Source: an uncultured Clostridia bacterium (lineage in GTDB: Bacteria; Bacillota; Clostridia; Christensenellales; UBA1242). From it: a stretch of DNA of 64,000 nucleotides. The notes under the pieces were generated by a model that saw nothing but the letters and a program-made list of their open reading frames with translations, did no database searches and was not told the DNA's origin. Each line of letters starts with the position of its first letter. Within the stretch, counting starts at the first letter, position 1. The stretch is taken from the NCBI GenBank assembly GCA_947632645.1, contig CANRQB010000001.1:70813-134812 (forward strand), read 5' to 3'. This document shows positions 37,943 through 60,224 of the stretch, piece by piece. A program made the translations under genes and the position numbers.

Positions 37943-39955
37943 TTAAAATAGATCGTCGTCGTCATCGTCGTCGCCATTTTGCCTTGCCATTAATTTGTTG
38001 CGCTCTTTAATGTCGTAGAACACCTTTTCTTCATCCAGTGCGCGGCGTTGCATATACACTGGCGCTGCCTTACTTGTATCGTACAAATTGGTTGCTTTAA
38101 AGTATGGGGTGATTTTGGTTTTAAGTGCGGCTTCTGGCTCGAAGGTCTTAATAATAATTTGCTCTTTATCCCTAAACGACATAAGTTCGTGCGGGTAGGC
38201 GATAGGGATGGATTGGTTTTGTTTAGAATACGATTTTGTGGTTTTGCCGTCCGGCCCTTCGCTTTCGTTTACGCTTTGTACGCTGATGGTTTTGTTGCCA
38301 AGTAGTTCGCTAAACTCTTTGTTTGTAACCGTGTCTTCAGATGCGATATACACTTGAATAGGGCAGTTATCTTTAATAATTTTACCCTCATCCTGCCCGT
38401 ATACCTGATACAACTGGCTGTAGCTTTGCACAATCAGTTCAAAGAAAATGCCACGGCTGCGGCCAACCGCCATATAGTTACCAAATTGTGGGAACTTAGG
38501 CATGTTACCGAACTCATCTAGCATAAAGTACACATTGCGCTTTAGTTTGCCACCAATTTGGTTTGCCTTTTCTACAAGCCGTTTATACAGTTGGTTAACA
38601 AACAAAATTGCAAGTGGGTAACGCGTGCGAATTTCATCTGGAATAATAAGGAACACTGCAGTAGGTTTTTCGTCTATCTTGGTAAAATCCAATTCGCTGT
38701 TGCTGGTTAAAAATGCAATACCAGAGTCGTTAAACATACTTACGCCGGCGGTTGCAAATCCCACGTAGTTTTTAGAAGTACTATCCGCATTGTTAAGCGC
38801 GGTGTTGCAAAGTTGTGCCACCTGGCCAAATTTATCGCGATAGCTAAATAGATATTGTTTCATAGTGGCGTAAGTGTCGCGTCCGCTATCCTGTGTGTTA
38901 ACAATTTTTGCCACGTTGTAAAAGTTAAATTTATCTCGTGTAAGGCCAAGTTCTGGAATACGCGTATCCTCTAGCATCGCCAAAATTATACCTTGCAGCA
39001 GTTTTTGCGCGGTTTGCTCCCAACTTGGGTCTTTTTCGTTTTGGATTGGCACAATCGCTTGGCAGATATCGGTTAGGGCATTATATGTTGTGTCTTGCAA
39101 CTCTTTTGCCACAACGCGCATATCATTTTCTAGCAGATGCTTGTCTGCATAAGCGGTGTTGCCAAATTCAAACCAAGTGGTGGTGTTGTAATCAAAATTG
39201 GTTTGTTTTATAAGCTTATATCTGTCCGGATTATCGCCCGGCTGATGCACTTTAACTTCTTTTGCCAAATTAAAACTGCGGGTGTATAAATCGTATGGGT
39301 AAAAAAGTGGATTCCATTGCACGCTTTGGAATGGGTTGCGTAGGTTTAAAACGTGCACATCATACCCTTCCTTTCTAAACTTGTTGGCGTTAATTTCGTA
39401 CAGCTCGCCCTTAGGGTCGGTTATAACAAAGCTTGGCTTTGCAGCAGTGGTAGACATAAGTTGCAAGCTAGGCACAACAAAACGTGTGGTTTTACCCGAT
39501 GATGTGGTACCAACAACTAGGGTGTGGATTGGCTTTACAAAATTTATTTCCATGCCTAAGCCCTTTGCCTCGGCGCGCACCAAAATGCCGTCTTTGTTGC
39601 ACGAGCGTATGCTAGATAGGGTGTTGTAGTTAAAGCCCTTTTCTTTTTTAAGCACGTCGTCGGTTACAAAATCTTTATCATAAAATTGCTGAACTTTTTT
39701 GCCCTTGGTGTCGGTAACGCTATCCTCTGCCTTGCCGCCCTTTTTAGAACCGCTGCTGCCATCTAACGATTTAAGCACCTTAATAACAAAGTATACCGCC
39801 ATAGAAAAGCCAGTTATAAACAAACTAACGCCAATATATTTGCGGTTAAAAGCAAAAGCGCTGGTGCTAAAATAGGTTGCAACAATGTTGCTAACAACAA
39901 ATATCAAAATTGCGGTTATAACAGCAAAGATAATTTTTTTACCGATTTTTTTCAT
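37943..39955 (-). CDS. Type IV secretion coupling protein (VirD4/TraG/TraD family ATPase) with a poly-Asp C-terminus
   Basis: 670 aa. Two N-terminal TM helices; Walker A VVGTTSSGKTT; DPKGELY; Walker B YFMLDEFGNMP; GRSRGIFFELIVQSYSQL; tail ...QNGDDDDDDDLF. Confidence 0.88.
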   Translation of the reverse strand: MKKIGKKIIFAVITAILIFVVSNIVATYFSTSAFAFNRKYIGVSLFITGFSMAVYFVIKVLKSLDGSSGSKKGGKAEDSVTDTKGKKVQQFYDKDFVTDDVLKKEKGFNYNTLSSIRSCNKDGILVRAEAKGLGMEINFVKPIHTLVVGTTSSGKTTRFVVPSLQLMSTTAAKPSFVITDPKGELYEINANKFRKEGYDVHVLNLRNPFQSVQWNPLFYPYDLYTRSFNLAKEVKVHQPGDNPDRYKLIKQTNFDYNTTTWFEFGNTAYADKHLLENDMRVVAKELQDTTYNALTDICQAIVPIQNEKDPSWEQTAQKLLQGIILAMLEDTRIPELGLTRDKFNFYNVAKIVNTQDSGRDTYATMKQYLFSYRDKFGQVAQLCNTALNNADSTSKNYVGFATAGVSMFNDSGIAFLTSNSELDFTKIDEKPTAVFLIIPDEIRTRYPLAILFVNQLYKRLVEKANQIGGKLKRNVYFMLDEFGNMPKFPQFGNYMAVGRSRGIFFELIVQSYSQLYQVYGQDEGKIIKDNCPIQVYIASEDTVTNKEFSELLGNKTISVQSVNESEGPDGKTTKSYSKQNQSIPIAYPHELMSFRDKEQIIIKTFEPEAALKTKITPYFKATNLYDTSKAAPVYMQRRALDEEKVFYDIKERNKLMARQNGDDDDDDDLF

Positions 39956-40076
39956 AATTATATAATTTCTCCTTAAATAAAAGCCGTGAGTAAATTTATT
40001 TACAGCATGCTAAGTGCAAGGGTGATTGCTAAGTGCCAACAGGGATATGATATTCCTATAATATTAATTATAATAA

Positions 40077-40108
40077 TTAAACAAATTGTTGTCAATCAAA
40101 TTGTTTAA
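40077..40108. promoter_or_regulatory. Inverted repeat (candidate operator) in the divergent T4CP / pilin-like promoter region
   Basis: TTAAACAAATTG-ttgtcaat-CAAATTGTTTAA (11 of 12 arm positions complementary). Confidence 0.35.
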
Positions 40109-40302
40109 TTTTAAAAATTTTATCCAAATTCGCCTATAAATTATACAGTTTGGATTTAAAAACATATTTTGGGCAATATATTAATAAATTTAGATTTTTA
40201 AAAAATTTTAAAAAATTTTACAAAAAATATACAAAATCGTTTGCATTTAAATTAAATAGATGCTAAAATTTAGTTATAAACTAATAAAAAAGGGGAAAAA
40301 CT

Positions 40303-40692
40303 ATGAAATTCTTTTCTATGTTATTAGATACTGAAACAACCAAACAAACACTTACCGAAAAATACGAGTGGCTTGGCGATTTAACAAGTGCTGTTAAAAA
40401 TGTGCTTAACCCAATTTTAATTGTTGCATGTTTGGTGGGCATTATATATGCAATTTGGGTTGGTGTGCAATTTGCTAAGGCAGATAGTTCCGATCAACGT
40501 AAAGAGGCTAAAAACAAACTTATAACCGTTATCGTTGGCGTTGTTGCGGCGGGTGCGTTGGTTGCTTTGTTCTACTGGCTAACTTGGATGATAAACAACG
40601 ACAAAATTCATTTTGATATCAAAGGCCAAGTTGGCACATCATTTGGTGGCTTTGTTCAACAACAACTAATGTGGATACATTCATTCTTTTAA
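40303..40692 (+). CDS. VirB2/TrbC-like small membrane protein (pilin-like conjugal transfer protein)
   Basis: 129 aa. Two TM helices flank a short charged loop (...VGVQFAKADSSDQRKEAKNKLITVIVGVVAAG...). Strong terminator at 40698-40719. Position is next to the T4SS ATPases. Confidence 0.55.
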   Translation: MKFFSMLLDTETTKQTLTEKYEWLGDLTSAVKNVLNPILIVACLVGIIYAIWVGVQFAKADSSDQRKEAKNKLITVIVGVVAAGALVALFYWLTWMINNDKIHFDIKGQVGTSFGGFVQQQLMWIHSFF

Positions 40693-40697
40693 AATTT

Positions 40698-40719
40698 AGG
40701 GCGGTAAGCCCTTTTTTTA
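40698..40719 (+). terminator. Terminator after the pilin-like gene
   Basis: AGGGC-ggtaa-GCCCT followed by T7. Confidence 0.7.
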
Positions 40720-40841
40720 TTTGGTGTTGTGTTTTTTATTTTTATATAGTAAATAGATAATTTCGCTTAATTTTTTTGTTTTGCGGCAATTTTGTTTGTT
40801 AAAATTAATTTTTTTGCTATAATAAACTAAAAGGAGGGGCT

Positions 40842-42320
40842 ATGGCGGACGACGACGAATTTGAAGATGATGAGCAATTAGATGAAGAAGATTTGGGCGA
40901 CGAAGAAACCGATAATGGAGACGAAATCGCGGACGACGATGACAACGACGAAGAAGATGACGAAGAAGAACAAGATAGCCAGCAAATGGCTAATGCCGAT
41001 AAAACTGCCATAACCAACCGATTAAAAAAATTAGAAAAATCATTAAAGAAAAGGCCAGTTCCAATTTTGTCGCCAAAAGAAAAACGACTTATAAAACAGG
41101 GAAAAGCAGTAAATCCAAAATTGGCATATAGAATAGAACTTTTATCATTAAGGCGTAAAGCAAGCGCTGCGCGTAAAACGATTATTGGTGGCGGTGTGCT
41201 TGTGTCGCTTTTGCCAGTAATTTTGGTTGTGCTAGTATTGGTAATGATTGGCTCGATAATCTCGTCAATATTTGGCTCGCGCTATAACGACGATGGCACG
41301 CCTGCGCCAAGTGAACTTGCACTTAACGGGAATCAAATATATGCCGCCCGCGCATTTTACACAGACGATGCGGCAGCAAACAAAAAAATTATTAATGACT
41401 ATTGTGGATATATCGCCTCGGCAATTGAGGGATACAACAGCACAAGCAGCGAATTTACACTTAACATAACACTACCTGCAAATGCCTTTGATTATAGCGA
41501 ATTTTTAACCATGTATACCGATACCCAGTATGGGTATTATAGGCTTGCTAGGTTAAGCTATATTTTTGCGCAAAATGTTAATTTGCAATATGGATTAAAT
41601 AAAACCGAAACCGATTTTGCGGGCATAATTAATGATATACAATATTTTGGGTTAGAGCAATCGCAGTTTGAAGAGGCAATGGGTGCAGTGGCCAACGAAA
41701 TTGTTAAAAATGGCGAGGACGATTGGTACACGCCAAAAGAGGGCAACAATCAGCCAAATATGTCTAACGATGCGCTTAGCCAAAGTTTAATTGAGGCGTC
41801 CAACTTTTCTGCAAGTGAACTTACACAAAAGGTATTTGTTGTAGATAGTGTGGTGGAAGGCGATAACACTCTTGCTTGGTTTAATGCCGGCGCAACCGCA
41901 AATGAAAAAACAAAAAAATACCTTGCAATAATGTATTTTCCGCACGCAAATTTTAGCATAGGAAGTTTATCTTATGCGTTTATAAAAACAGGCGAAGGTG
42001 AGGTTGTTGTTCACTATGGCGAAAATAGTTATAAGCTGCAAGCCGTGTCGGTGGAGGACGATAACTACACCTACGAAAGCGAAGAAATAAATTTAAATGT
42101 GTCGGCAAGCGAAAAGCCAGCTGTGCTGCTATCTAGCGATGCAACACTTAGCGAACTTTTCTCGCAAATAAAATCGCAGGACGAACAAAACCTTGACACA
42201 TATTTTGATGTGCAAGAGGTTGACGGCAAAAATGTTTATACCTACAAATTGTTTAACCTTTACGCCGAATTTAACTTTGATGACTATTTCAGCTTTGCCG
42301 ACCAAAACAATTCATATTAG
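40842..42320 (+). CDS. Bitopic membrane protein with an extremely acidic N-terminus; T4SS-associated, function unknown
   Basis: 492 aa; MADDDEFEDDEQLDEEDLGDEETDNGDEIADDDDNDEEDDEEEQD; single TM (GGGVLVSLLPVILVVLVLVMIGSIISSIF); ~350-aa extracytoplasmic domain with no recognisable motif. Confidence 0.7.
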   Translation: MADDDEFEDDEQLDEEDLGDEETDNGDEIADDDDNDEEDDEEEQDSQQMANADKTAITNRLKKLEKSLKKRPVPILSPKEKRLIKQGKAVNPKLAYRIELLSLRRKASAARKTIIGGGVLVSLLPVILVVLVLVMIGSIISSIFGSRYNDDGTPAPSELALNGNQIYAARAFYTDDAAANKKIINDYCGYIASAIEGYNSTSSEFTLNITLPANAFDYSEFLTMYTDTQYGYYRLARLSYIFAQNVNLQYGLNKTETDFAGIINDIQYFGLEQSQFEEAMGAVANEIVKNGEDDWYTPKEGNNQPNMSNDALSQSLIEASNFSASELTQKVFVVDSVVEGDNTLAWFNAGATANEKTKKYLAIMYFPHANFSIGSLSYAFIKTGEGEVVVHYGENSYKLQAVSVEDDNYTYESEEINLNVSASEKPAVLLSSDATLSELFSQIKSQDEQNLDTYFDVQEVDGKNVYTYKLFNLYAEFNFDDYFSFADQNNSY

Positions 42321-42360
42321 GCGCAAACTGTACTTTTGCTAAATTAATTTGGCAAGCAAA

Positions 42361-42700
42361 TTAATTGTAAGCATGTCGCAACAACCCTTTATTAATCGTT
42401 TTGCATACGCAAAACTTCATTTTTAGGGATGTTGTTCCTTTCCCCAAAAAATTACGATTTTTTCGGGGGCCCCAAATTTTTGCGCCTTTGCTATTAAGGG
42501 ACACCCGCTGGTTTCCCTTAATAAATCCTTTCCTGAAATGTGTCTGCCTACGCAAGGGAACTGCAGCGGGGAAAGTTTTAAAATTTTGCATACCTACGCA
42601 TGGGAATATTTACTTTTCTATGCTAGAAAAGTTACAAAAGACCTGGGGCGTTCCGATTCGCCCCAGACCCCACAAACGGCTTACTTTAAAAATAAGCAAA
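42361..42700. other. Hairpin-dense, relatively GC-rich non-coding island inside the T4SS-like module (candidate ncRNA, oriT-like site or decayed gene)
   Basis: Stems: 42398-42415; 42442-42468; TTAAGGGA/TCCCTTAA 42494-42521; CTTTTCTA/TAGAAAAG 42613-42631; CTGGGGCG/CGCCCCAG 42643-42666; GCTTA/TAAGC 42679-42697. Direct repeat CCTACGCAWGGGAA at 42546 and 42592. No credible ORF. Confidence 0.45.
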
Positions 42701-42732
42701 AAGTAGATTTTTAATTAATATAAAATGCAATT

Positions 42733-42897
42733 ATTACAATAGTAATAAAAACGAATAACGTAATATTACAATAGTAATTAAATTAATTTTCAACATATCA
42801 TTATAACTTTAGTTATCAAAATTTTAACTAAGGTTTTTTATTTATCTAATTTTATAATTAATTTAGATATTGTGGCTGTCTTTATTACAATAGTAAT
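42733..42897. repeat. Three copies of ATTACAATAGTAAT (ATTAC-N4-GTAAT) upstream of the VirB6-like gene
   Basis: Exact 14-mers at 42733-42746, 42765-42778 and 42884-42897, each within TATTACAATAGTAAT. Confidence 0.8.
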
Positions 42898-42955
42898 AAT
42901 CATTTATAAAAAAATAAAATAAAATGTAAAAAAATAATAGATTTGTTTGTTTTTT

Positions 42956-42984
42956 TTGTTTATTTAGTGTATACTATGTATAAT
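42956..42984 (+). promoter_or_regulatory. Candidate promoter of the VirB6-like / VirB4-like genes
   Basis: TTGTTT (42956-42961), 17-nt spacer, TATAAT (42979-42984). Confidence 0.4.
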
Positions 42985-43029
42985 TAAAATAGCGTTTATA
43001 GTTAATTCGCAAATAGATATGGGGGAAAT

Positions 43030-45471: not shown

Positions 45472-45508
45472 TTAAAATCTTATTATAGTGATTTTTCACG
45501 GAGGGGTT

Positions 45509-48295: not shown

Positions 48296-48310
48296 TCCGC
48301 CTCTATTATT

Positions 48311-48341
48311 GGGCGCACAAGTGTGTGTGCCCTTCTTTTTT
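48311..48341 (+). terminator. Terminator after the VirB4-like gene
   Basis: GGGCGCACA-agtg-TGTGTGCCC followed by TTCTTTTTT. Confidence 0.7.
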
Positions 48342-48495
48342 GGCGGTTATCTTCGCCTATTATGAAGGGGGACCTGCTTCCCCCTTCATGACTTCCCTCT
48401 TGAATAGGTTGAATTTTTAAGAAATATATAGATGATATGTATAAATCTTACGTTTTTTTGTTGATTTTTGCTTAAATTTTGGTTAAAATAACTAT

Positions 48496-49416
48496 ATGTT
48501 AAATGACGATTTAAATAAGGTGGTTATTGTTGGGTGCGGCAATGTGGGCATGAGCTATGCCTTTAGTTTGGTTATCGATAGCAAGGTTAACGAGTTGGTG
48601 CTTATCGACATCAATCAGCAAAAGGCAGAAGGCGAGGCGCTGGATTTATTGCACGCATCAAGCGTGAGCGAGCACAAAATTAAAATTAAGGTGGGGGATT
48701 ATTCTGATTGCGACAATGCGGACATTATTTGCATCGCAGCGGGCAGAAATCAAGAAAAGGGTGAGGATAGAAATGCACTTATAGATAAAAATATTGGCGT
48801 GTTTAATTCGATAATTAGCGAAGTTAACAAAACCAAATTTAACGGCATCTATCTTATTGCTACCAATCCGCTTGATGTTATGACGTATGTTACGCTAAAG
48901 CTATCTGGTTTCCCTGCAAATAGGGTTATAGGCAGCGGCACCACACTGGATACCGCGCGGCTTAAATACATTGTTAGCGAGCAAGTGGGGGTTAACCCAA
49001 AAAATATTCACGGCTATGTTATTGGCGAGCATGGTGATAGCGAGCTTGTGCCATGGAGTACGGTGCGCGTTGGAGTAAATGCGGCTGAAAAATACCTAAG
49101 CAAACCAAAACAAAATAAGATAGTTGCAAATGTGCGCAACAGTGCATATGAAATTATAAACAAAAAGGGCAACACGGCATATGGCATTGGCATCTGCCTA
49201 AGAAACATTACCGATGCAATTTTTAACGACTCCAATTATATATTCACCACATCCAGCTACATTAAAAAATATGGATGCTGTGTGGGGTATCCAACAATAA
49301 TAAATCGCGCGGGGATAAAAGACATTTTGCCAATATCTTTAACCCAAAGCGAGCAAGTCGAATTTAATGACAGTGTAAAGGCAATTAAGAGTAATATCAA
49401 AAATTTAAAACTTTAA
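48496..49416 (+). CDS. ldh: L-lactate dehydrogenase
   Basis: 306 aa; ...VVIVGCGNVGMSYAF...LIDINQQKAEGEALDL...GEHGDSE... Confidence 0.9.
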   Translation: MLNDDLNKVVIVGCGNVGMSYAFSLVIDSKVNELVLIDINQQKAEGEALDLLHASSVSEHKIKIKVGDYSDCDNADIICIAAGRNQEKGEDRNALIDKNIGVFNSIISEVNKTKFNGIYLIATNPLDVMTYVTLKLSGFPANRVIGSGTTLDTARLKYIVSEQVGVNPKNIHGYVIGEHGDSELVPWSTVRVGVNAAEKYLSKPKQNKIVANVRNSAYEIINKKGNTAYGIGICLRNITDAIFNDSNYIFTTSSYIKKYGCCVGYPTIINRAGIKDILPISLTQSEQVEFNDSVKAIKSNIKNLKL

Positions 49417-49594
49417 GTTAAAAAATTTGCCAAAAAATTTAACAATAGGCATATAAAAATTAAACTAAAAAAATTAAAAATTTTAAAAAAACCAACCAAA
49501 ATTTAAAAAAATTGCGCATTTTTGTGCAATTTTTCATGTTTTTTATAGAAATTTTTAAAATTTTAAGCAAATTTTATATTTTGCTTTTTTAAAT

Positions 49595-50131
49595 TTACAT
49601 TATCTGCTCGGTTAAAAATTTTGCAAAGGCGCGGCACACTTTAACGCTGCTATCATCAAAGCATTTGTTTTCGTTTGCCAAAATTATAATTGAGCCAATT
49701 GCATCGCCATCTTTAACAATTGGCACAATAAGTTGGCAACAGCTGGTGTTTGTTTCGTCCGCAAAAATATCTAACATTTGGCTGCCATCTTGCTGGCGTT
49801 TAATAATTAACTCTTTATTGTAAATTAAATCCTGCACGGCATTAGAAAGTGTCTTATTTGCATATCGCTTTTTGTTGGTTGCCACCACCACTTCTAGGTC
49901 GGTTATTATAATGTCGTGCTCTATGCTTTCCGCAATAGCTGTCACAGCAGATTGGCTATACAAATTTAGTGTGCCAATCGGGCTATATTTGCTAAGCAAA
50001 AATTTGCATCCGTCCACAATGCTTATTTCTAGTTGGGTGCCCTCGCGTACATTTAGCGTGCGCCTCATCTCGCGCGGCAGCACAATGCGGCCTAATTCGT
50101 CAACTCGTCTAACAACCCCTTTAACTTCCAT
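49595..50131 (-). CDS. spoVT: SpoVT/AbrB-family regulator (stage V sporulation protein T-like)
   Basis: 178 aa. N-terminal swapped-hairpin domain GVVRRVDELGRIVLPREMRRTLNVREGTQLEI plus a GAF-like C-terminal domain, the same length and architecture as SpoVT. Confidence 0.8.
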   Translation of the reverse strand: MEVKGVVRRVDELGRIVLPREMRRTLNVREGTQLEISIVDGCKFLLSKYSPIGTLNLYSQSAVTAIAESIEHDIIITDLEVVVATNKKRYANKTLSNAVQDLIYNKELIIKRQQDGSQMLDIFADETNTSCCQLIVPIVKDGDAIGSIIILANENKCFDDSSVKVCRAFAKFLTEQIM

Positions 50132-50274
50132 ATAAACTCCTAGTTTTAGTATGTTGCAATAAATTTTTATTATGCAGTTAAAACGGGCAAAATATTTGTA
50201 TTATTTTAACAAATTGCTTTTTTACTATTGATTTTTATTAAAAATTATGTTATAATTTTTTTAAGAGGTATAAA

Positions 50275-53200: not shown

Positions 53201-54087
53201 AACTTAACGAGCGCCGCGAATACGAGCAGAAGATAGAAACTTTAAAAACCTATCTTGGCGTTAAATACTTTGATGGCACAACAACCATTTCTATGGTGGA
53301 CGAGCAACTTAAATCGGGTGCATACACACTGGACGCTACTACCATGCAGTACAAATTGTCTAGGCATTCTAGGAACAAAAAGCAAGACAAAATAGACGAG
53401 CAAAAATTTAACAGCCACATTTCTAGGTTTAATGGGCAAGTTTACAAGGCCGATCAAACTGTGGAGGTTGATGGGTTTGAATATCGTTGCATTAAAATTG
53501 GCGATAATCTATATGCTAAAAACAGCAGTGGCGAATTTAAACAAGTGGTTAAAGATAAGGATAAAACCTATACATTTAAAGATATTGCTGATAATGTAGA
53601 TTTAGAGGCACACAAAATGCTATCGTCTACAAAAATTACAGTGATAGAAGAAAGTGGCCATTACGAAAAACCTGTGGTTGAAGAAGTTGCCCCTGCGCCT
53701 AAGCCAGACGAGGTTAATCCAGCCAACGAGGAAGAAAAACGCAAAAAGGCAGAAAAAAATGCAGAAAGAAAGGCAGAGTACAGCAAGCCAATTTCCGAAA
53801 GCACAGTGCAACAAAACGATCTTTGGAAGGGCATCGTTGCCGCGCGTCAAATTGATTTGGCGGGCGAAAATGCTGCAGAAGAGGTGGCAGAATTTAGCAA
53901 AAAACTTAAATTTATAACCAGCAAAAAATACGCTGCTTTGCTAGAAAAAGCGGCAAAAAGTGCACCAATCGAAATTGAAGTTAAAGGCAAAAAACAGATA
54001 GTAGATATTGGTTTGTTAAGCGACACAAGCGAGCATATAACAAACATTCAAAATTTGGTGGAAAAACTAAAAGGCAAAACAAAATAA
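50275..54087 (+). CDS. Giant (1270 aa) hypothetical protein with a central two-helix membrane anchor and a coiled-coil C-terminal half
   Basis: No signal peptide. Hydrophobic pair ...FGLKVGATFFLGGGLLALLGAPVLVAGAAAAYVATGVLAPFYYLAKG... near residue 640. The C-terminal half is heptad-like and K/E-rich. Extended -10 TGTTATAAT upstream. Confidence 0.75.
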   Translation: MVNIINPSDVKNTTFEELSRLDGSILQNFKNVRFLMDGSSTWFSLGELEIVDGKTRRVPTSLKEVVDAYKNRQLRRSGFSYIWGSDVHDATNITIDPYSLTDTYVSDSIIPDGADAADYMYGLRRLLKVQPSSDANFKENRFMYVCVDGIWNFYDKNDIGYYQDGKFTPIKDLSRDEVAEIADKDLYLSDSYGNAHITGVINQSYSLTQVEHSGMPVVERISDDGSAITSYVLTDDGTNFRSYVSGNYVTTNTSSTSEFNEQSFSLNNNDARMQTTIYQTSQNGNYLRLKLQGQSEPIAVRVTGEQSQLYYADKSGNHGEQVRLDTEDRAQVLRRIIGQELFVKITSGAEEKWERTQAITAQQALFAYNTEKFMQSTKQHDNYMADNAYLRLSDGRYVKESEFVRPIAYNFVFDEKAEYDAYLCYVTNAEGKTETIIAPKDFTGGRIAGFNVRSEDMLRIKKTTSPLKESNVIQTTNNGEKLNRCVTLNERPEKGAITAAKKEKADELLQNALQQFKNEYQQGRYAIDGNKVLVKQEDGSYKEMGLDCSGELPKRFIYSDEIYTEDTTHSDSKYKYLLNNPEFVDEATGKLKNGPKFNTKAAIKDFYKKFGAFGLKVGATFFLGGGLLALLGAPVLVAGAAAAYVATGVLAPFYYLAKGIRLKFKSFADKVVANRNNIKKNLDNQLQSLYEKIMSRADTISKEKQRLEGLQSTLDSDLNSDHYADLPGVKEQDNIIEKLRESLPKDRWAILEEDYETYLEKQTYINKNILEKIIFVDGKKVSSKKNLTKEDFEKLATCLDISVDELKFNYLTSKGNLKTSEIFKKLQKLTTASKEVKKYQATLQQIVDAKSMRRQIVVDHLNNALQNCNGELEALKNNLEAALNGDIAAGIHSLSETRYLALFEIKNGYADVTEANAALYSKFNSDIKKVAGKLTKINSKVSKNPADASLIAEQKQLQANLYALINSPKAGAIYDELNERREYEQKIETLKTYLGVKYFDGTTTISMVDEQLKSGAYTLDATTMQYKLSRHSRNKKQDKIDEQKFNSHISRFNGQVYKADQTVEVDGFEYRCIKIGDNLYAKNSSGEFKQVVKDKDKTYTFKDIADNVDLEAHKMLSSTKITVIEESGHYEKPVVEEVAPAPKPDEVNPANEEEKRKKAEKNAERKAEYSKPISESTVQQNDLWKGIVAARQIDLAGENAAEEVAEFSKKLKFITSKKYAALLEKAAKSAPIEIEVKGKKQIVDIGLLSDTSEHITNIQNLVEKLKGKTK

Positions 54088-54132
54088 AAAGGTGGCAACG
54101 TGCCATCTTTTTTAAAAATTTTAAAAAGGGTA

Positions 54133-54160
54133 TTGACAAATAAAAAATTTATGGTAAAAT
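54133..54160 (+). promoter_or_regulatory. Promoter of the 31-aa-repeat protein gene
   Basis: TTGACA (54133-54138), 16-nt spacer, TGgTAAAAT (54152-54160). Confidence 0.6.
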
Positions 54161-54180
54161 TGTGTTAGTTGGAGGAAATT

Positions 54181-56364
54181 ATGGATAACACGCAAGATGA
54201 AAAAATGATAATAAATTTAACAATAAAAAAATTAGTACGTTTTTTACATGAACGAGCTTGGTATTGGGATGATAAATTTAGTTGTATCTTTGAAGAAATA
54301 GCTAATAAAGTAAATTCATTTGCTGCCATAGTTAAAGGTTTGGCAAAAAAGCTATTCTTAAAAGATACAGCAGCAGATCATAAAAAACTTGCCGAATATT
54401 TAGTATATTTATCCCATGATGACCTTTTAGATGTTTTAGATACAGTTATTAAAACTAATGATGGAAATCTTATTTATAGATTTGCTTGCGATGCAGATTG
54501 CTTAACTTATGAAGACAAAGTAAAATTAATGGACAAACTTATTAAGATAAACGACTATTCTCGGTTGCCTTATTTTGCAAAGGATGTTAGAGGCATAACT
54601 CACGAGGACATAGTAAAATTAGCAGACGCAACTATTAAAACTAACAATGCGGAATATATTTATAAATTTGCTATAATTGTAAAATATTTATTAAACCACG
54701 AGGACATAGTAAAATTACTAGATGCAGTTATTACAACTAAAGATGCGGGATATATTTTTGACTTTCTTCAAAATGTAAGAGGCTTAAACAATGATGACAA
54801 AGTAAAATTATTAGATGTAGTTATTAAAACTAAAGATGCGTATCTCATTTTTGGTTTTGCTACAAAAGTAAAAGGCTTAAGCCCTGAAGACAAAGTAAAA
54901 CTATTAAAAGCAGAAATTGCAACAGGTAGTGCGAAATATATTTATGAATTTGCTAAAAATGTAGAAGGCTTAGAGCGTGAAGACAAATTAAAATTATTAG
55001 ATGCAGTAATTGCAACTGGTAGTGCGGAATATATTTATAAATTTGCTAAAAATGTAGAAGGCTTAAACCCTGAAGACAAAGTAAAACTATTAGACGCAGT
55101 TATTGCAACTGGCAATGCTGAATATATTTACGAATTTGCTAAAAATATACGAGACTTAACCACTGAAGACAAAGTAAAACTATTAGATGCAGAAATTGCA
55201 ACTGGTAGTGCGAAATATATTTATGAATTTGCTATAATTGTAAAATATTTATTAAACCACGAGGACATAGTAAAATTATTAGATTTAGTTATTAAAACTA
55301 AAGATGCGTATTATATTTATAAATTTGCTAAATATGTAGAAGGCTTAACCCCTAAGGATAAAGTAAAACTATTAAATGCTTTAATTGCAACTGGCAATGC
55401 TGAATATATTTACGAATTTGCTAAAAATATACGAGACTTAACCACTGAAGACAAAGTAAAACTATTAGATGCAGAAATTGCAACTCGCAATGCGGTGTAT
55501 ATTTATTATTTTGCTATACTAATGTGGCGGGACTTAGCACGCAAGGACCAAGTAAAATTATTAAATGCAGAAATTGCAACTGGCGATGCGTATTATATTT
55601 ATATATTTGCTGCAGAAGTAAAAGGCTTAACCCCCGATGACAAAGCAAAACTATTAAAAGCAGAAATTGCAATTGGCGATGCGTATTATATTAATGTATT
55701 TGCTTTAGGAGTAAAAGGCTTAACCCCCGATGACAAAGTAAAACTATTAGAAGTAGAAATTGCAACTGGCAATGCGGAATATATTTATCAATTTGCTACA
55801 GAAGTAGAAGGCTTAACCCCCGATGACAAAGTAAAACTATTAGAAGCAGAAATTGCAACTGGCGATGCGGAATATATTTATCAATTTGCTACAGAAGTAG
55901 AAGGCTTAACCCCCGATGACAAAGTAAAACTATTAGAAGGAATTATTGCAACTGGCGATGCGTATTATATTAATGAATTTGCTTTAGGAGTAGAAGGCTT
56001 AACCCACGATGACAAAGTAAAATTATTAGATTTAGTTATTAAAACTAAATATGCGGGTAGGATTTTTGATTTTGCTACAAAAGTAGAAGGCTTAAGCTAT
56101 GAAGACAAATTAAAATTATTAAATGCTTTAATTGCAACTGGCGATGCGTATCATATTTATCGATTTGTTACAGAAGTAGAAGGCTTAAAAATTGATGATT
56201 TTTATACAATATACGATGCATTCATGCATGACAAATTTGATGATAAAAGATATTTTAACAGATTTCTTAAATTATTTAAAGAAACGTTTGGGTTAACAAA
56301 ACAAGAAATAGAGGAAAATCGAGAATTTTTACTATTTAAATTCACAAAAATTTCACCTGTGTAG
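54181..56364 (+). CDS. Tandem-repeat (about 19 x 31 aa) predicted alpha-solenoid protein
   Basis: ATG at 54181 after GGAGGA. Repeat consensus L-[TNS]-P-[ED]-DKVKLL-x-A-x-IATG-x-AEYIY-x-FA-x-x-VEG. 93-nt DNA period. No signal peptide. Confidence 0.8.
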   Translation: MDNTQDEKMIINLTIKKLVRFLHERAWYWDDKFSCIFEEIANKVNSFAAIVKGLAKKLFLKDTAADHKKLAEYLVYLSHDDLLDVLDTVIKTNDGNLIYRFACDADCLTYEDKVKLMDKLIKINDYSRLPYFAKDVRGITHEDIVKLADATIKTNNAEYIYKFAIIVKYLLNHEDIVKLLDAVITTKDAGYIFDFLQNVRGLNNDDKVKLLDVVIKTKDAYLIFGFATKVKGLSPEDKVKLLKAEIATGSAKYIYEFAKNVEGLEREDKLKLLDAVIATGSAEYIYKFAKNVEGLNPEDKVKLLDAVIATGNAEYIYEFAKNIRDLTTEDKVKLLDAEIATGSAKYIYEFAIIVKYLLNHEDIVKLLDLVIKTKDAYYIYKFAKYVEGLTPKDKVKLLNALIATGNAEYIYEFAKNIRDLTTEDKVKLLDAEIATRNAVYIYYFAILMWRDLARKDQVKLLNAEIATGDAYYIYIFAAEVKGLTPDDKAKLLKAEIAIGDAYYINVFALGVKGLTPDDKVKLLEVEIATGNAEYIYQFATEVEGLTPDDKVKLLEAEIATGDAEYIYQFATEVEGLTPDDKVKLLEGIIATGDAYYINEFALGVEGLTHDDKVKLLDLVIKTKYAGRIFDFATKVEGLSYEDKLKLLNALIATGDAYHIYRFVTEVEGLKIDDFYTIYDAFMHDKFDDKRYFNRFLKLFKETFGLTKQEIEENREFLLFKFTKISPV

Positions 56365-56473
56365 CGCAGGTGGTTTTTATTTAAGGAAATTGTATTTTTC
56401 AATTCATTTAGATTGCACAATTCATTTGACATTTTGCGGGGTTTCTATTAAAATATAATAGTTAGGAGTTATT

Positions 56474-57838
56474 ATGCAGAATTTTGATAAGATTGTAAAC
56501 CTTTGCAAGGCGCGCGGAATAATTTTCCCGGGCAGCGATATCTACGACGGGCTTGCCAACACCTGGGATTATGGCCCGGTTGGGGTGGAGTTAAAAAACA
56601 ACATCAAGCGCGCGTGGTGGAAAAGGTTTGTGCAGCAATCCACAAATAGTTTTGGTGTGGATGCAGATATTTTTATGAACAGCAAGGTGTGGGAGGCAAG
56701 CGGGCACACTGCCAGTTTTTCCGACCCTAAAATGGATTGTAAAAGTTGCAAAACACGCCACAGAGCAGACAATTTAATAGAAGCGCACAGCAAAGGCACA
56801 GTTAATGCAGACAAGATGACTAATGAAGAAATGGAGCAATATATCGCCGAGCACAAGGTTGCTTGCCCAAAATGTGGTAAGTGTGATTGGACACCAATCC
56901 GCAACTTTAACCTTATGTTTTCAACTTCGCGTGGGGTGACGGACGAAAGCCAAAACCTAATATATCTGCGCCCAGAAACCGCGCAGGGTGAGTTTGTAAA
57001 CTTTTTAAATGTTCAGCGCAGCATGCGTGCAAAAGTGCCATTTGGCATTGCGCAAATTGGCAAAGCATTCCGCAACGAAGTTACCCCTGGCAACTTCACT
57101 TTCCGCACAATTGAATTTGAACAAATGGAGCATCAATGGTTTTGTAAGGCGGAAGATAGCATGAATTACTACAACGAATTTAAGCAAAAAGCATGGGATT
57201 TCTTGCTTTCTATCGGCTTTAAGGCAGAAAATTTGCGCTTTCACGACCATGACAAACTTGCGCACTATGCTAAGGCGGCTTGCGACATCCAGTACAAATA
57301 TCCAATCGGTTGGGAGGAGTTGAACGGCATACACCACCGCGGCGATTGGGATTTATCTCGTCACCAAGAATTTAGCGGCAAATCCATGCTGTACACCGAC
57401 CCTTTCACCAACGAAAAATATATACCGAATGTAATTGAATATTCAATCGGTGCGGATAGGCTAACACTGGCTGCCATGTGCGAGGCATACGACGAAGAAA
57501 AATTGCCGGACGGCGACACGCGTGTGGTTATGCATTTTCATCCAGCCATTGCGCCATATAAAGTGGCAGTGTTGCCGTTGCAAAAAAACATGGGGGATAA
57601 GGCACGCGAAATTTATAGCGACCTTACCAAATATTTTATGTGCAGTTACGATGAGGCTGGCAGCATAGGCAAGCGTTACCGCCGCCAGGACGAAATTGGC
57701 ACCCCAATGTGCATAACTATCGATTTTGACACGTTAGAGGACAACACAGTAACCGTTCGCGACCGCGACACTATGCAGCAAATCCGCCTAAATGTAAGCG
57801 AACTTAAAGATTATATTGCAAAGAAAATTACTTATTAA
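56474..57838 (+). CDS. glyQS: Glycine--tRNA ligase (homodimeric class II type)
   Basis: 454 aa; ...GIIFPGSDIYDGLANTWDYGPVGVELKNNIK...FRNE(V)TPGNFTFRTIEFEQME... Confidence 0.94.
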   Translation: MQNFDKIVNLCKARGIIFPGSDIYDGLANTWDYGPVGVELKNNIKRAWWKRFVQQSTNSFGVDADIFMNSKVWEASGHTASFSDPKMDCKSCKTRHRADNLIEAHSKGTVNADKMTNEEMEQYIAEHKVACPKCGKCDWTPIRNFNLMFSTSRGVTDESQNLIYLRPETAQGEFVNFLNVQRSMRAKVPFGIAQIGKAFRNEVTPGNFTFRTIEFEQMEHQWFCKAEDSMNYYNEFKQKAWDFLLSIGFKAENLRFHDHDKLAHYAKAACDIQYKYPIGWEELNGIHHRGDWDLSRHQEFSGKSMLYTDPFTNEKYIPNVIEYSIGADRLTLAAMCEAYDEEKLPDGDTRVVMHFHPAIAPYKVAVLPLQKNMGDKAREIYSDLTKYFMCSYDEAGSIGKRYRRQDEIGTPMCITIDFDTLEDNTVTVRDRDTMQQIRLNVSELKDYIAKKITY

Positions 57839-57842
57839 TTTA

Positions 57843-57876
57843 TTTTCTCTTTTTTAAAAAAGAAAAACAGAAAAAC
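57843..57876. repeat. Left 34-bp inverted repeat of the accessory cassette
   Basis: TTTTCTCTTTTTTAAAAAAGAAAAACAGAAAAAC. Its reverse complement matches 60191-60224 at 33 of 34 positions. Confidence 0.8.
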
Positions 57877-57897
57877 AAGTAAACCACTTGTTTTTTT
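57876..57897 (+). terminator. glyQS terminator
   Basis: CAAGT-aaacc-ACTTG followed by T7. Confidence 0.65.
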
Positions 57898-57952
57898 GTT
57901 GCTTTTTAATAAAAAAATAGAGATAAAAAACAAAAAAACGAGCAAATGCTCG

Positions 57953-58075
57953 TTAATTCGTTTTATTTTTATTTGACTTTTTACTTAACTTTTTATTTTT
58001 TTCTTTTGGGCAAATTCTGTTTACAAGTTCGTCAAACTTTTTATCCATATAAACATTAAATTCTGCTTGTGTCAT
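57953..58075 (-). CDS. Small (40 aa) basic ORF translationally coupled to the 26-aa-repeat protein gene
   Basis: Hand-translated and below the track cutoff: MTQAEFNVYMDKKFDELVNRICPKEKNKKLSKKSNKNKTN. The ATG lies 1 nt after the upstream stop, with GGAGTGG just upstream. A terminator (ACGAGC-attt-GCTCGT plus T-run on minus) follows. Confidence 0.4.
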   Translation of the reverse strand: MTQAEFNVYMDKKFDELVNRICPKEKNKKLSKKSNKNKTN

Positions 58076-58076
58076 A

Positions 58077-59399
58077 TTACCACTCCAATTTATTTATTTC
58101 GCTTATAACTGCGTCTTGATGTTTTTGTTCTTCAGTAAGTTGTTTTATGGCCGCAGCCCTTTTACTGTCAATTTCATTGTCCAACTTATCTAATTGTTTG
58201 TCAAATTCTTTAACTACTTTATCTGGAACTTCATCAGTGTAGCCGTTTTCTTCACAAATTTGATTAAATTTTTGTTTAAATTTATTTTTAATTATAGCGC
58301 ACAACACAAATACTGCCTCATTGTTGGCAAAAATTTCAATTGGTAATTGATCGAATTTTATTTTGCCTGCGCCATAAAGGATAAGGGCTTTTTGTGCCCT
58401 GTAAGTTGGCTCAAAAATTGCTGCAGGAATAGAATTTTTTGTTTTTTCATCAACAAGATTTGCTGTATTATGACGCCAAGAAGCACCCATATTTATAATT
58501 TCTTGCGGAATTTTCTGAATTTGTTTTTGTGACAAGCGTTTTAAATATCCGCCATTTAATGCGCGTCTATTAATGCTTTTTTGCGAAATTGATTTTATCA
58601 TGTCTTCTGTAATACAATCCAGATCCAAATCACCGCCATTTTCAACATATAAGTCAAAATCCTTTTTAGAGATAGCAGCAATCTGTTTTGCTGTTAAATT
58701 CTCTAGCGAATAACCATTTTGTGCACGTTTGTTTACAATTTCTTGTGGGATTGCTGCAATTTTTTCGCTTGGAAGATAACTTAAGCTCCAGCCATTTAGC
58801 GCACGTTGATTAATTATATCATTTGGTATGTATAGGTCTAATCTCATCAATTTAAATTTAGTTAAGTCGTCTAAATCTCCACCATTAGCAATATATTGAA
58901 ATAAAATGTGCTCAGGAATTGAAGATAATTGCATTTTAGTAAGATAATTTAAATCTCCGCCATTTGCGATATATTTAATAATGATTCTAGAAGGAATATT
59001 TTCAATTTGTTCTCGCGTAAAACAGTCAAGATACTTACCATCTATTGCGTATTGATTAACAATTTCTTGCGGAACTGCTTTTATTTGCTTGTTTGTAAAG
59101 TAACTAGGATCTTTGCCTAATTGCAAATATTTGTTTACTATTTCTTGCGGAACGGCTTCTATTTTAGGTAGAAGTCCCAAATCATAGCCTTTTGCCACGC
59201 GCTGATTAATAATATCTTGAGGAATAGCACTATTTTTTATTTGAAAGTTTTCAAGATAAAGCAAATTTCCACCATTGGCAATATATTTCAATATAACTTC
59301 TTGCGGAATCGCAGAAATTTGTGCTTTAGATAAGAAATCTAGATCTCCGCCATTTGCGACATATTGATTTATGTCGTCTTGTGTTAACTCATATTTCAT
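58077..59399 (-). CDS. Tandem-repeat (about 12 x ~26 aa) protein with a coiled-coil C-terminus
   Basis: 440 aa. Repeat consensus IPQEI(V/I)N-x-Y-(I/A)-ANGGDL-x-(Y/F)LT-x-x-QI-x-A. No signal peptide. AGGGAGG RBS. Confidence 0.8.
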   Translation of the reverse strand: MKYELTQDDINQYVANGGDLDFLSKAQISAIPQEVILKYIANGGNLLYLENFQIKNSAIPQDIINQRVAKGYDLGLLPKIEAVPQEIVNKYLQLGKDPSYFTNKQIKAVPQEIVNQYAIDGKYLDCFTREQIENIPSRIIIKYIANGGDLNYLTKMQLSSIPEHILFQYIANGGDLDDLTKFKLMRLDLYIPNDIINQRALNGWSLSYLPSEKIAAIPQEIVNKRAQNGYSLENLTAKQIAAISKKDFDLYVENGGDLDLDCITEDMIKSISQKSINRRALNGGYLKRLSQKQIQKIPQEIINMGASWRHNTANLVDEKTKNSIPAAIFEPTYRAQKALILYGAGKIKFDQLPIEIFANNEAVFVLCAIIKNKFKQKFNQICEENGYTDEVPDKVVKEFDKQLDKLDNEIDSKRAAAIKQLTEEQKHQDAVISEINKLEW

Positions 59400-59420
59400 A
59401 ATAATCCTCCCTTATAAATA

Positions 59421-59452
59421 AGTATACCATAGGGGGGGGGGGTCTCTGTCAA
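59421..59452 (-). promoter_or_regulatory. Promoter with a homopolymeric tract (C11 on the coding strand) as the -35/-10 spacer; candidate phase-variation switch
   Basis: The minus strand reads TTGACA-gaga-C11-ta-TGgTATACT. -35 at 59447-59452, tract at 59432-59442, extended -10 at 59421-59429. The spacer is 20 nt as sequenced. Confidence 0.6.
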
Positions 59453-59560
59453 GTGAGTTTGGCAAAAAAATTTAAAAAATATGAAAATTTTGTCAAAAAT
59501 TTTTTTGAACGGGTTGTTCTGCTTCTTTTTATAAAAAAGAGAAAAAATAAAAAAACTCCA

Positions 59561-60136
59561 CTATACTGTGGAATTTTTAATTTCTTGTTCGCAATCTTCA
59601 AGCCATTGTGGAAATTTTTGTTTGCAGAATTTATAGGTGTTGCTGTCGGTGTTATTTAGAACTCCAAAACGGATAATTCTATCTTTTATGTGGCGTTCCA
59701 TTTGCTCAACATACTCGGGCGCGGTTGAGAATTTATGAAAATCAATTTTGCCTTGTTTTATAAGTTTATTAATCACTTTATATAAATCATCCACCTTTGT
59801 GCACTTTAAAACTTTGGCGGGCTGACTACTGACAACCTCTGGGCTAAAACTGGTTTTGCCCTCTTCAAAATTGGCTGGGTTAACCTCATAAATATAGCAA
59901 CTTTCGTCTTGAAAAACCCGCTCCAGCGCGCCAGGATACGCCTCAAAAAAGCATGGCTTGCCATTGTTTAGCCCCAAAATTCCGTCAAAATCACCAAAAC
60001 TTTTTTTGCTTCCAAACATAAGCGCAAGGCACAAGTCGGACGTGGCGTAAACATAACTTACACCATGAGTTGAAACGGGCGGCTCAAGCACTGTTATGCC
60101 CGGTGTTGCCGAAACATGATATAATTTCTTTTTCAT
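59561..60136 (-). CDS. Hypothetical 191-aa protein
   Basis: Clean ORF; no recognisable family. Confidence 0.6.
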   Translation of the reverse strand: MKKKLYHVSATPGITVLEPPVSTHGVSYVYATSDLCLALMFGSKKSFGDFDGILGLNNGKPCFFEAYPGALERVFQDESCYIYEVNPANFEEGKTSFSPEVVSSQPAKVLKCTKVDDLYKVINKLIKQGKIDFHKFSTAPEYVEQMERHIKDRIIRFGVLNNTDSNTYKFCKQKFPQWLEDCEQEIKNSTV

Positions 60137-60190
60137 ATAAAAATTATATCACAAATTGCACAAAAAGTCAAATTTTTTATATTAATGCGG

Positions 60191-60224
60191 GTTTTTCTGT
60201 TTCTCTTTTTTAAAAAAGAGAAAA
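60191..60224. repeat. Right 34-bp inverted repeat of the accessory cassette
   Basis: GTTTTTCTGTTTCTCTTTTTTAAAAAAGAGAAAA. Contains the perfect 20-nt palindrome TCTCTTTTTTAAAAAAGAGA. Confidence 0.8.

Follow-up and report, generated by a model that had tools for sequence, protein, structure and literature searches.

In mycoplasmas, a minimal conjugation channel composed of CDS5, CDS15, CDS16, and CDS17, and devoid of VirB1 and VirB8, mediates both the transfer of integrative and conjugative elements (ICEs) and chromosomal transfer (PMC6030558, PMC12857230). A further type IV secretion system (T4SS), described in the Patescibacteria, is chromosomal, mostly relaxase-less, and derived from the MPF-FATA class, and it is essential to the epibiotic growth of Southlakia (PMC12102498, PMC12857230). 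Here, we analyze a 64-kb stretch of DNA (hereafter, the window; contig CANRQB010000001.1 of assembly GCA_947632645.1) from a gut bacterium of the Clostridia, GTDB family UBA1242, near Candidatus Onthoplasma and with a genome smaller than 1 Mb. Between 37.9 and 60.2 kb, the window carries a T4SS module related to that of the mycoplasma ICEs, followed by the orphan proteins p1270, rep31, rep26, and p191, interleaved with core genes. According to our preferred reading, to which we assign a probability of about 0.72, these 22 kb are a chance neighborhood in a small and heavily rearranged genome, bringing together a domesticated T4SS module, unrelated orphan genes, and homopolymer contingency sites.

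The genomes of family UBA1242, which includes Onthoplasma, measure ~0.7 to 1 Mb, mostly below 1 Mb, and lack most biosynthesis, the standard transporters, and parts of glycolysis, and they have many auxotrophies; the family has been proposed to consist of obligate symbionts or parasites and is predicted to depend on a partner organism (PMC12306168). A secretion or conjugation system goes unmentioned in the two main papers on the family (PMC12306168, PMC13155120). An initial annotation of the window, made from the sequence alone, had read the 22 kb as a single lifestyle island, in which a secretion machine, a giant anchor protein, and phase-variable solenoid cargo would work together.

A Minimal Secretion Module of the Mycoplasma/Spiroplasma Type

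Along the region, the gene order is VirD4, pilin-like, p492, a 709-nt gap, VirB6-like, VirB4, ldh, spoVT, p1270, rep31, glyQS, rep26, p191, L9, and leuS (Table 1). The first five of these genes form a minimal T4SS module homologous to the conjugation module of Mycoplasma/Spiroplasma ICEs, the type being monoderm MPF-FATA with that module as its nearest relative. The VirB4 ATPase, in which GKSGSGKS is the Walker A motif and VVIAVDE a Walker B-like one, scored 557.5 bits against NCBIfam VirB4_plasma (the Mbov_0397 ICE ATPase), slightly below the cutoff of 590, and also matched the CD1110 family (1.8e-39); its best relatives on plasmids are those of Spiroplasma, at 29% identity. Immediately upstream, the VirB6-like protein passed two NCBIfam models, MMCAP2_0566 (NF045848, 121 bits, cutoff 90) and the Mbov_0396 ICE transmembrane (TM) protein (NF045889, 87.7 bits, cutoff 70), whereas the Pfam VirB6/TrbL search gave no match; it shows ~6 TM helices within amino acids (aa) 1 to 370, followed by a variable coiled-coil-like tail. 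VirD4 contains the Pfam domains T4SS-DNA_transf (1.4e-53), TraG-D_C, and TrwB_AAD_bind, and it passed the NCBIfam model conju_CD1115 with 299 bits (cutoff 250).

The two remaining members are small or of no assigned family. The 129-aa protein, which in NCBIfam reached 35 bits for the Mbov_0395 pilin-like ICE protein, under the cutoff of 40, may be either a VirB2-like pilin or an analogue of VirB3, as its mycoplasma counterpart CDS15 has been termed VirB3-like (PMC12857230), and in both cases would provide the small membrane protein of a T4SS. Protein p492 has an acidic N-terminal tail, a single TM segment (aa 111–148), and an outside domain of ~340 aa; it is thus bitopic, like VirB8/TcpC-type proteins, but it matched none of the profiles searched in Pfam, NCBIfam, and the PDB. 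Neither a VirB8-like component nor a VirB1-like cell-wall hydrolase was recognized in the module. In summary, four of the parts by which a T4SS is recognized were found, namely a VirB4 with intact NTP-binding motifs, a VirD4, a VirB6-like protein encoded beside virB4, and a small membrane protein.

The likeness to the Mycoplasma/Spiroplasma ICEs (M. agalactiae ICEA CDS5/15/16/17; Mbov_0395-0397, MMCAP2_0565/0566) concerns both the protein families, which are the same, and the order, since a small two-TM protein, a polytopic TM protein, and VirB4 follow one another in all of them; in the Spiroplasma plasmid, where the order is adhesin, Mbov_0395, Mbov_0396, a small ORF (open reading frame), Mbov_0397, and VirD4, the VirD4 gene comes after VirB4. 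None of these systems has a recognizable VirB1-like or VirB8-like protein, and each has a surface or outside protein encoded beside the channel genes, a CDS14 lipoprotein or adhesin in the mycoplasmas and p492 here, although p492 has no detectable homology to CDS14. The differences are also clear. In contrast to a mycoplasma ICE, no DDE recombinase (CDS22), CDS1, or terminal inverted repeats are present here, the UBA1242 module occupies one chromosomal site and shows vertical descent, its host keeps sporulation and cell-wall-related genes, and its VirB4 is only ~29% identical to the Spiroplasma copies.

The 709-nt gap between p492 and the VirB6-like gene is unusually long (~150 nt in the related locus L079). 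Within it, positions 42380–42700 are GC-richer and fold much better than shuffled sequences (z = −4.25). An RNA gene was considered there, and Rfam gave no match in spite of the stable folding; ORFs of 76 and 101 aa spanning the same positions are not conserved. Downstream of this segment, the imperfect palindrome ATTACAATAGTAAT is present in three exact copies, with no further exact copy in the window, a count reached by 0 of 100 shuffles. These copies may be candidate operator sites for a lineage-specific regulator; a conserved operator was discarded, as the motif is missing from all the related loci.

Conservation, Chromosomal Site, and Descent of the Module

A scan for VirB4 in species-representative genomes provided 66 related virB4 loci, one genome per species and each with 10-kb flanks, so that gene counts were taken over 67 sources (the window plus the 66 loci) by tblastn and ORF clustering, and co-occurrence was judged at the level of the locus. 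Nearly all of these loci come from gut metagenome-assembled genomes (MAGs) labelled Candidatus Onthoplasma, uncultured Clostridia, or Christensenella. VirB4 was found in all 67 sources, the VirB6-like protein in 57, the pilin-like protein in 47, SpoVT in 44, p492 in 41, and VirD4 in 38. The order of the module is fixed, with the VirB6-like gene immediately 5' of virB4 in 57 loci, p492 always located between the pilin-like and VirB6-like genes (41 loci), and VirD4 nearly always divergent from the remaining genes.

Just downstream of virB4, spoVT appears in 44 loci, on either strand, and it marks a conserved chromosomal site of the module in most of the 66 related species. The other recurrent neighbors are housekeeping genes (Dus, MurJ/SpoVB-like flippase, TadA, M14 peptidase, CAAX protease, and RlmH, and, in addition, S9/L13/TruA, PFOR, VanW, RmuC, HflX, and PPDK), while ldh adjoins virB4 in only 12 loci. 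In Bacillus, spoVT presumably adjoins the MurJ-like gene yabM, in which case the module would occupy an ancestral locus of sporulation genes.

The pairwise identities of VirB4 covary with those of SpoVT (rho 0.89), the MurJ-like protein (0.88), LDH (0.87), TadA (0.81), and Dus (0.76), and more weakly with those of the M14 peptidase (0.42). All six neighbors are less conserved than VirB4, whose mean pairwise identity is 0.73 versus 0.67 for Dus and 0.62 for TadA, and 0.86 versus 0.76 for LDH. In addition, the Walker A motif is intact in 63 of 63 full-length VirB4 and 38 of 38 full-length VirD4 proteins. No relaxase family matched any of the window ORFs scanned, the recurrent neighbor families, or the sampled other neighbors in related loci, and the same set of genes yielded no integrase or transposase. 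What would mark a conjugative element, namely a DNA-processing enzyme, an enzyme for integration and excision, element ends, and a patchy distribution, was therefore not found in the window and the scanned flanks. Synteny, covariation, and the higher conservation of VirB4 together point to a chromosomal system that is old, has descended vertically, and is under strong selection, and to neither a mobile element nor a remnant. On these points, the initial annotation had judged well, as it had called the machine relaxase-less, long-resident, and possibly domesticated.

Conservation is uneven within the module. Between the window and L079, VirB4 (93%), GlyRS, and SpoVT are 93–95% identical; the pilin-like, p492, and VirB6-like proteins are only 51–53% identical (p492, 51.5%), which suggests that the outer face of the machine may be under diversifying pressure.

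Beside virB4, many relatives directly encode very large Sec-type surface proteins (1000–3300 aa), which carry a signal peptide and often a C-terminal TM anchor, unlike p1270. One of them, in L002 (2216–6817), is an M60 enhancin-like peptidase that bears F5/8-type-C and DUF285 domains and occupies the place of p492.

Table 1. Features of the 22-kb region and of related loci. Positions are those of the 64-kb window unless a related locus (L number) is given.
Feature	Position	Strand	Remarks
Second Ser_hydrolase paralog, split by a frameshift at G9 (37132–37140)	36673–37220	−	Pfam PF06821 on a 139-aa ORF
VirD4-type coupling protein (type IV coupling protein, T4CP), 670 aa	37943–39955	−	N-terminal TM helices; Walker A GTTSSGKT
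Pilin-like/VirB3-like protein, 129 aa	40303–40692	+	Two TM; Pfam T4SS_pilin PF18895, 32.4 bits (cutoff 26.6)
p492, bitopic membrane protein, 492 aa	40842–42320	+	Conserved module member
Imperfect palindrome ATTACAATAGTAAT, three exact copies	42733–42746, 42765–42778, 42884–42897		Precede the VirB6-like/virB4 operon
VirB6-like polytopic channel protein, 813 aa	43030–45471	+	NCBIfam and TM segments
VirB4 ATPase, 935 aa	45488–48295	+	N-terminal TM segment; Pfam P-loop_TraG, DUF87
L-lactate/malate dehydrogenase, ldh (core metabolism, outside the system)	48496–49416	+	Pfam Ldh_1_N, Ldh_1_C
SpoVT/AbrB-family regulator, spoVT (core sporulation gene)	49595–50131	−	Pfam SpoVT_C, MazE_antitoxin; NCBIfam spore_V_T 2.1e-40
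p1270, 1270 aa	50275–54087	+	Own promoter 50228–50256
rep31, 727-aa alpha-solenoid	54181–56364	+	~19 two-helix repeats of 31 aa; promoter 54133–54160; terminator 56353–56373
Glycyl-tRNA synthetase, glyQS (core)	56474–57838	+	Pfam HGTP_anticodon, tRNA-synt_2b
rep26, 440-aa alpha-solenoid	58077–59399	−	~11 repeats of ~26 aa and a conserved C-terminal helical domain
rep26 promoter	59400–59457	−	TTGACA-GAGA-C11-TATGG-TATACT; TGn extended −10; then ribosome-binding site GGGAGG
p191, 191-aa soluble protein	59561–60136	−	Own promoter 60171–60143
Large Sec-type surface proteins by virB4	L031 4031–8443; L039 12834–17309; L054 10092–13226; L055 12699–22706; also L028, L034, L064

The Orphan Proteins p1270, rep31, rep26, and p191

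The protein taken as the giant anchor of the machine, p1270, has a conserved N-terminal half and a variable coiled-coil C-terminal half, with no signal peptide. Its hydrophobic center of ~41 aa (aa 613–653) contains a conserved Gly and a conserved Pro and is flanked by K/R on both sides, from which p1270 is predicted to be anchored in the membrane by a helical hairpin, with both of its ~600-aa halves in the cytoplasm. Only three homologs share words with it, and an exhaustive HMMER search recovered 71 cluster representatives at 50% identity. In this previously unnamed family of 1000–1850 aa, 58 of the 58 long members present a central hairpin of ~44 aa and none an N-terminal signal; their N-terminal half contains two highly conserved motifs, YLRL.DG.YVKESEFVRP and IQTTN. 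Across the 66 loci, no member of the family lies within 10 kb of virB4, with the exception of L079, whose order is VirB4-ldh-spoVT-p1312-glyQS, p1312 being the p1270 homolog. Close homologs are limited to L079 and to the sister MAG GCA_947630745.1, in which the p1270 homolog is found on contig 9 beside Mrr and thrS, and the T4SS, with a VirB4 90% identical, on contig 4. An analogy of p1270 with CDS19 of mycoplasma ICEs (1400–1500 aa) was also considered and discarded, as NCBIfam and Pfam gave no match and the family is not found near virB4 in the 66 loci.

The 31-aa repeat of rep31 is seen both in the DNA, where Tandem Repeats Finder reported 93 nt × 16 at 54691–56188, and in the protein, with a motif spacing of 31–32 aa. 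The protein has neither signal peptide nor TM segment, and AlphaFold2 modelled it as helical hairpins stacked into an alpha-solenoid (pLDDT 84); the fold search returned only generic TPR, HEAT, and designed-repeat matches of low TM-score. Among 50 uncharacterized homologs, the contexts examined were core-gene neighborhoods without T4SS genes. In L079, rep31 is absent between the p1270 homolog and the conserved glyQS promoter, so that glyQS, whose copies in L079 and L081 are 92–94% identical to that of the window, directly follows the p1270 homolog. A contig from a Hadza gut (L068, 4213–11314) carries four adjacent ORFs of 643, 650, 497, and 437 aa; two or more of these are rep31-like, pointing to a tandem expansion of paralogs in the rep31 family.

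The 26-aa repeat of rep26 was missed at the DNA level by Tandem Repeats Finder, and it is nevertheless real in the protein, with a spacing of 24–30 aa, mostly 26, and a solenoid modelled by AlphaFold2 with a pLDDT of 91.8 and a pTM of 0.82. As rep31, it lacks a signal peptide, and no match at E<0.001 was found for it in the PDB or BFVD. Of its 27 homologs, a 68% ortholog in GCA_947630745.1 lies between L9 and glyQS on contig 2, with neither p191 nor any T4SS gene nearby. More distant rep26-like and rep31-like genes belong to bacteria whose PGK, TIM, and TyrRS are only 35–44% identical to those of the window, and they stand in core-gene contexts. According to the models, the term solenoid is right for both proteins. 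The label of eukaryote-like effector found no support, fold searches having given generic ARM/TPR/HEAT/ankyrin-like similarity.

Other identities were tried for these genes. TALE-like repeats, suggested by LTPE/LTxEQ starts in both repeats, were rejected because the top PDB Foldseek matches were only generic ARM/TPR/HEAT/designed-repeat folds with low TM-scores, and weak Pfam matches on rep31 and rep26 (WHIM1, NikR_C, DUF3173, etc.) are regarded as artefacts of repeat composition in which no single stretch passes. A defence-system or phage origin of the orphan genes was likewise abandoned after PADLOC and PHROGs gave nothing meaningful. In the PDB, sequence and profile searches with p492, the VirB6-like protein, p1270, rep31, and rep26 gave no credible match.

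The fourth orphan, p191, had a single homolog among the 66 loci, 36% identical and located in L061 (~637–1200), ~1.5 kb from virD4, which may be a coincidence. Apart from this match, none of p1270, rep31, rep26, and p191 was present in the 10-kb virB4 flanks of the 66 loci, and no genomic or phylogenetic association of the proposed cargo with the machine was found at locus level. A sigma-70-like promoter was assigned to each gene, and terminators were located after VirB4, after rep31, and after the convergent glyQS/rep26 pair. An N-terminal hydrophobic signal is missing from all the large and repeat proteins, as the initial annotation had noted in support of secretion; the missing Sec signal is equally explained by a cytoplasmic location, and for p1270, rep31, rep26, and p191 the predicted place is either the cytoplasm or, by anchoring, the cytoplasmic side of the membrane. 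To our knowledge, no signal has been established for protein substrates of monoderm T4SSs.

The inventory drawn up in that annotation stood as regards its parts, since the T4SS genes, the core genes, and the repeats were found where it had placed them, with ldh, spoVT, glyQS, L9, and leuS as the interleaved core genes; it failed as regards their unity. The division of all non-housekeeping genes into machinery, large or repetitive proteins, and tiny accessory ORFs proved too tidy, as two Ser_hydrolase genes, a lipoprotein, and other uncharacterized proteins occur right outside the 22 kb or elsewhere in the window, and the tiny ORFs, conserved in no relative, are probably not genes.

Homopolymer Tracts

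The C11 tract in the core promoter of rep26 (59432–59442, G11 on the + strand) lies between its two hexamers. G/C runs of that length are expected ~0.002 times by chance in 64 kb. The −35/−10 spacing is 20 nt, or 15 nt if an alternative −10 is taken, and is thus non-optimal in each of the three complete copies; the promoter was not called by the promoter scan, which accepts spacings of 16–18 nt. The same promoter design with C11 is found in the sister species L081, even though the protein is only 68% identical and the flanking sequence has diverged; the distant homolog in L083 has an ordinary promoter without a tract. Of eight independent metagenome assemblies bearing an identical or orthologous rep26 gene, six (L073–L077 and L082) end at or inside the C tract, and the other two, L072 and L081, read through it, both with C11. 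The assembly breaks fit a heterogeneity in tract length and, equally, a failure of Illumina sequencing or of the assembler at poly-G/C.

Homopolymers in promoter spacers mediate phase variation in Neisseria meningitidis opc (poly-C) and porA (poly-G), Bordetella fim (poly-C), and Mycoplasma vlp (poly-A). The rep26 promoter is like the opc/porA-type loci in having a long G/C homopolymer between −35-like and −10-like hexamers, upstream of a gene for a variable protein, and its tract is kept across species despite diverged flanks. In contrast to those loci, rep26 has no signal peptide and is no obvious surface antigen, and the spacing is non-optimal. From this promoter architecture, rep26 is probably phase-variable via the tract. 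The proposal that a homopolymer switches this repeat gene thus holds for the structure of the promoter, while no variation in length was seen among the three complete copies.

A second tract, G9, splits the Ser_hydrolase paralog beside virD4. Three-frame translation showed that a change from G9 to G10 would restore a protein of ~180 aa. The split may reflect either phase switching at the level of translation or an error of assembly in the homopolymer. Altogether, two G/C runs of at least 9 were observed in the 64 kb, versus ~0.05 expected.

Other Features of the Window

The first 35 kb of the window contain ribosomal-protein, EF-G/EF-Tu, glycolysis, RNase R, and SmpB genes. Beside the ribosomal operon, at 609–2372, an orphan protein of 587 aa has a long low-complexity tail rich in K/T/S/A, and beside smpB, at 35884–36639, there is an orphan lipoprotein of 251 aa with the lipobox FSAC. 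As orphans occur outside the proposed island too, the presence of orphan genes among core genes is a property of the whole window. No compositional boundary was detected in its GC profile, nor any tRNA, Rfam family, or integrase. In addition, a 65-nt tandem repeat at 26557–26731 (2.6 copies, 81% match), in which a TTGACA-like hexamer is included, sits upstream of a polytopic membrane protein of 402 aa with no family assigned (26879–28087).

Discussion

Under the chance-neighborhood reading, the module would have been fixed beside spoVT in an ancestor and inherited vertically ever since, under strong purifying selection. A channel in the membrane, evolving fast on its outer face, would be built from the VirB6-like protein, p492, and the small two-TM protein; VirB4 would power it, and VirD4 would select the cytoplasmic substrate. 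Because no relaxase, integrase, or transposase was found nearby, the module is likely no longer mobile, and it would serve the cell by exchanging macromolecules with other cells upon contact. DNA would be the most likely substrate, as in the chromosomal transfer of mycoplasmas or in DNA import, which we judge from the homology to the mycoplasma systems and from the DNA-binding-type domains of VirD4. Retention of the module may reflect the dependence of these auxotrophic bacteria of less than 1 Mb on partner cells. As regards p1270, rep31, rep26, and p191, they appear as lineage-specific orphans, each with its own promoter and distribution and no demonstrable link to the T4SS, and the C11 and G9 tracts, in the rep26 spacer and the hydrolase gene respectively, are most likely sites at which slipped-strand mispairing switches or tunes expression.

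A different function of the T4SS module, and of the module only, is a possibility to be taken seriously even if we hold it to be the lesser one: an organ of host interaction like that of the Patescibacteria, which would deliver proteins or take up nutrients or nucleotides during epibiotic or parasitic growth, rather than exchange DNA. The reduced genomes of UBA1242, missing pathways and standard transporters, and the partner-dependent lifestyle proposed for them (PMC12306168) would fit such an organ, as would the conservation of VirB4 above its housekeeping neighbors, the fast divergence of the outer components expected of an interface with partner cells, and the large Sec-type surface proteins and M60 peptidase often encoded beside virB4 in relatives. 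The Patescibacteria system itself (Saccharimonadia; Southlakia epibionticum) is alike in its reduced, auxotrophic host, its MPF-FATA ancestry, its chromosomal and lineage-wide presence, the lack of a relaxase near the genes, and its VirB2/pilin-like gene. However, it belongs to a different phylum and has a VirB4 of a Patescibacteria-specific clade, in contrast to the Mollicutes-ICE type found here, and neither a VirB1-like or VirB8-like protein nor a pilin gene cluster was recognized in our module. UBA1242, in addition, is known from genomes alone, without a partner cell or a physical association, the nearest homologs of its T4SS, those of mycoplasma ICEs, move DNA (PMC6030558), and its VirD4 keeps the DNA-binding-type domains. 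Rather doubtful, in our opinion, is the more far-reaching proposal that UBA1242, as an ultra-reduced lineage of Clostridia, has converged with the Patescibacteria by domesticating a conjugation machine of the Mollicutes-ICE type, which would now be an organ of contact between cells without which a partner-dependent existence in the animal gut, epibiotic or parasitic, could not be led. Its rapidly diverging outer parts (the pilin-like protein, p492, and the VirB6-like tail) would set the range of partners; in the boldest version of the proposal, the phase-variable, signal-less solenoids would be variable cargo of the T4SS.

That the 22 kb make up one lifestyle island, with p1270 as anchor or scaffold of the T4SS, rep31 and rep26 as translocated proteins, and rep26 as phase-variable cargo, seems improbable. 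All the genes do lie within 22 kb and no candidate has a Sec signal, but across the 66 related species there is no co-localization, relatives carry the machine without the repeat genes at the locus, which the initial annotation itself had set as a ground for refutation, the genes form separate transcription units of differing distributions, and core genes are interleaved with no GC boundary around them. Likewise, p1270 follows VirB4-ldh-spoVT in both the window and L079, but rep31 is absent from the L079 site, and in the sister MAG, the T4SS, the p1270 homolog, and the rep26 homolog are spread over three contigs (4, 9, and 2, respectively); moreover, basic residues flank the p1270 hairpin on either side, which suggests that both large domains of p1270 are cytoplasmic. 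Both repeat proteins are confident alpha-solenoids, a fold common in effectors, and VirD4 is retained; in addition, the M. hominis ICEs, of the same T4SS type, encode helical TALE-like proteins with 32-aa repeats (PMC6813540). Against this, no shared C-terminal domain or motif was seen on reading the candidate sequences by eye, distant bacteria too encode rep26-like and rep31-like proteins, amid ordinary core genes, and protein export or translocation by Gram-positive T4SSs is treated as a largely open question (PMC12857230). The Dot/Icm repeat effectors of Legionella and Coxiella (ankyrin, Sel1), to which the cargo had been likened, are similarly signal-less alpha-solenoids in a T4SS-bearing genome, but they belong to a different T4SS class, the host here is monoderm, neither a translocation signal nor a C-terminal module in common was identified, and the rep proteins have no significant match to the ankyrin, TPR, or Sel1 families and no association with the machine.

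Scarcely credible is a decaying, functionless remnant of an old ICE, which would agree with the finding of no relaxase, integrase, or DDE transposase nearby and with the absence of VirD4 or p492 from some flanks (e.g., L002), but not with the Walker A motif kept in every full-length VirB4 and VirD4, with VirB4 identities above those of Dus, TadA, and LDH, with order and orientation conserved in most of the sampled species of the family, or with a genome of less than 1 Mb and over 90% coding density, which would not retain ~9 kb of dead genes.

Several points weigh against the chance-neighborhood reading. The transported substrate is conjectural, and the Patescibacteria precedent would suggest a role other than DNA transfer. 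VirD4 was not found in the flanks of ~28 loci, some of them short and others truly rearranged, and the relaxase-less condition applies to the window and the 10-kb flanks, so that other parts of the genomes may hold a relaxase or copies of the repeat families. Known T4SS effector repertoires vary between strains, and a patchy distribution is therefore compatible with cargo. In two of the three genomes having p1270, it adjoins spoVT and the T4SS, which makes a lineage-specific functional link possible. Finally, C11 was present in all the three complete copies of the rep26 promoter, with no variation in tract length observed.

With a domesticated module among unrelated orphans as the preferred reading, proximity in scrambled small genomes is weak evidence of function, and the cargo interpretation should not be propagated; it is best to regard the orphans as unrelated proteins that evolve fast and are cytoplasmic or membrane-anchored. 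The gut bacteria concerned, with genomes below 1 Mb, are abundant in animals and humans. Their T4SS, more conserved than genes for tRNA modification and glycolysis, is the most obvious candidate for the interaction of UBA1242 with other cells, and the module provides a concrete set of genes to be tracked in metatranscriptomes and a Firmicutes counterpart to the T4SS of the Patescibacteria.

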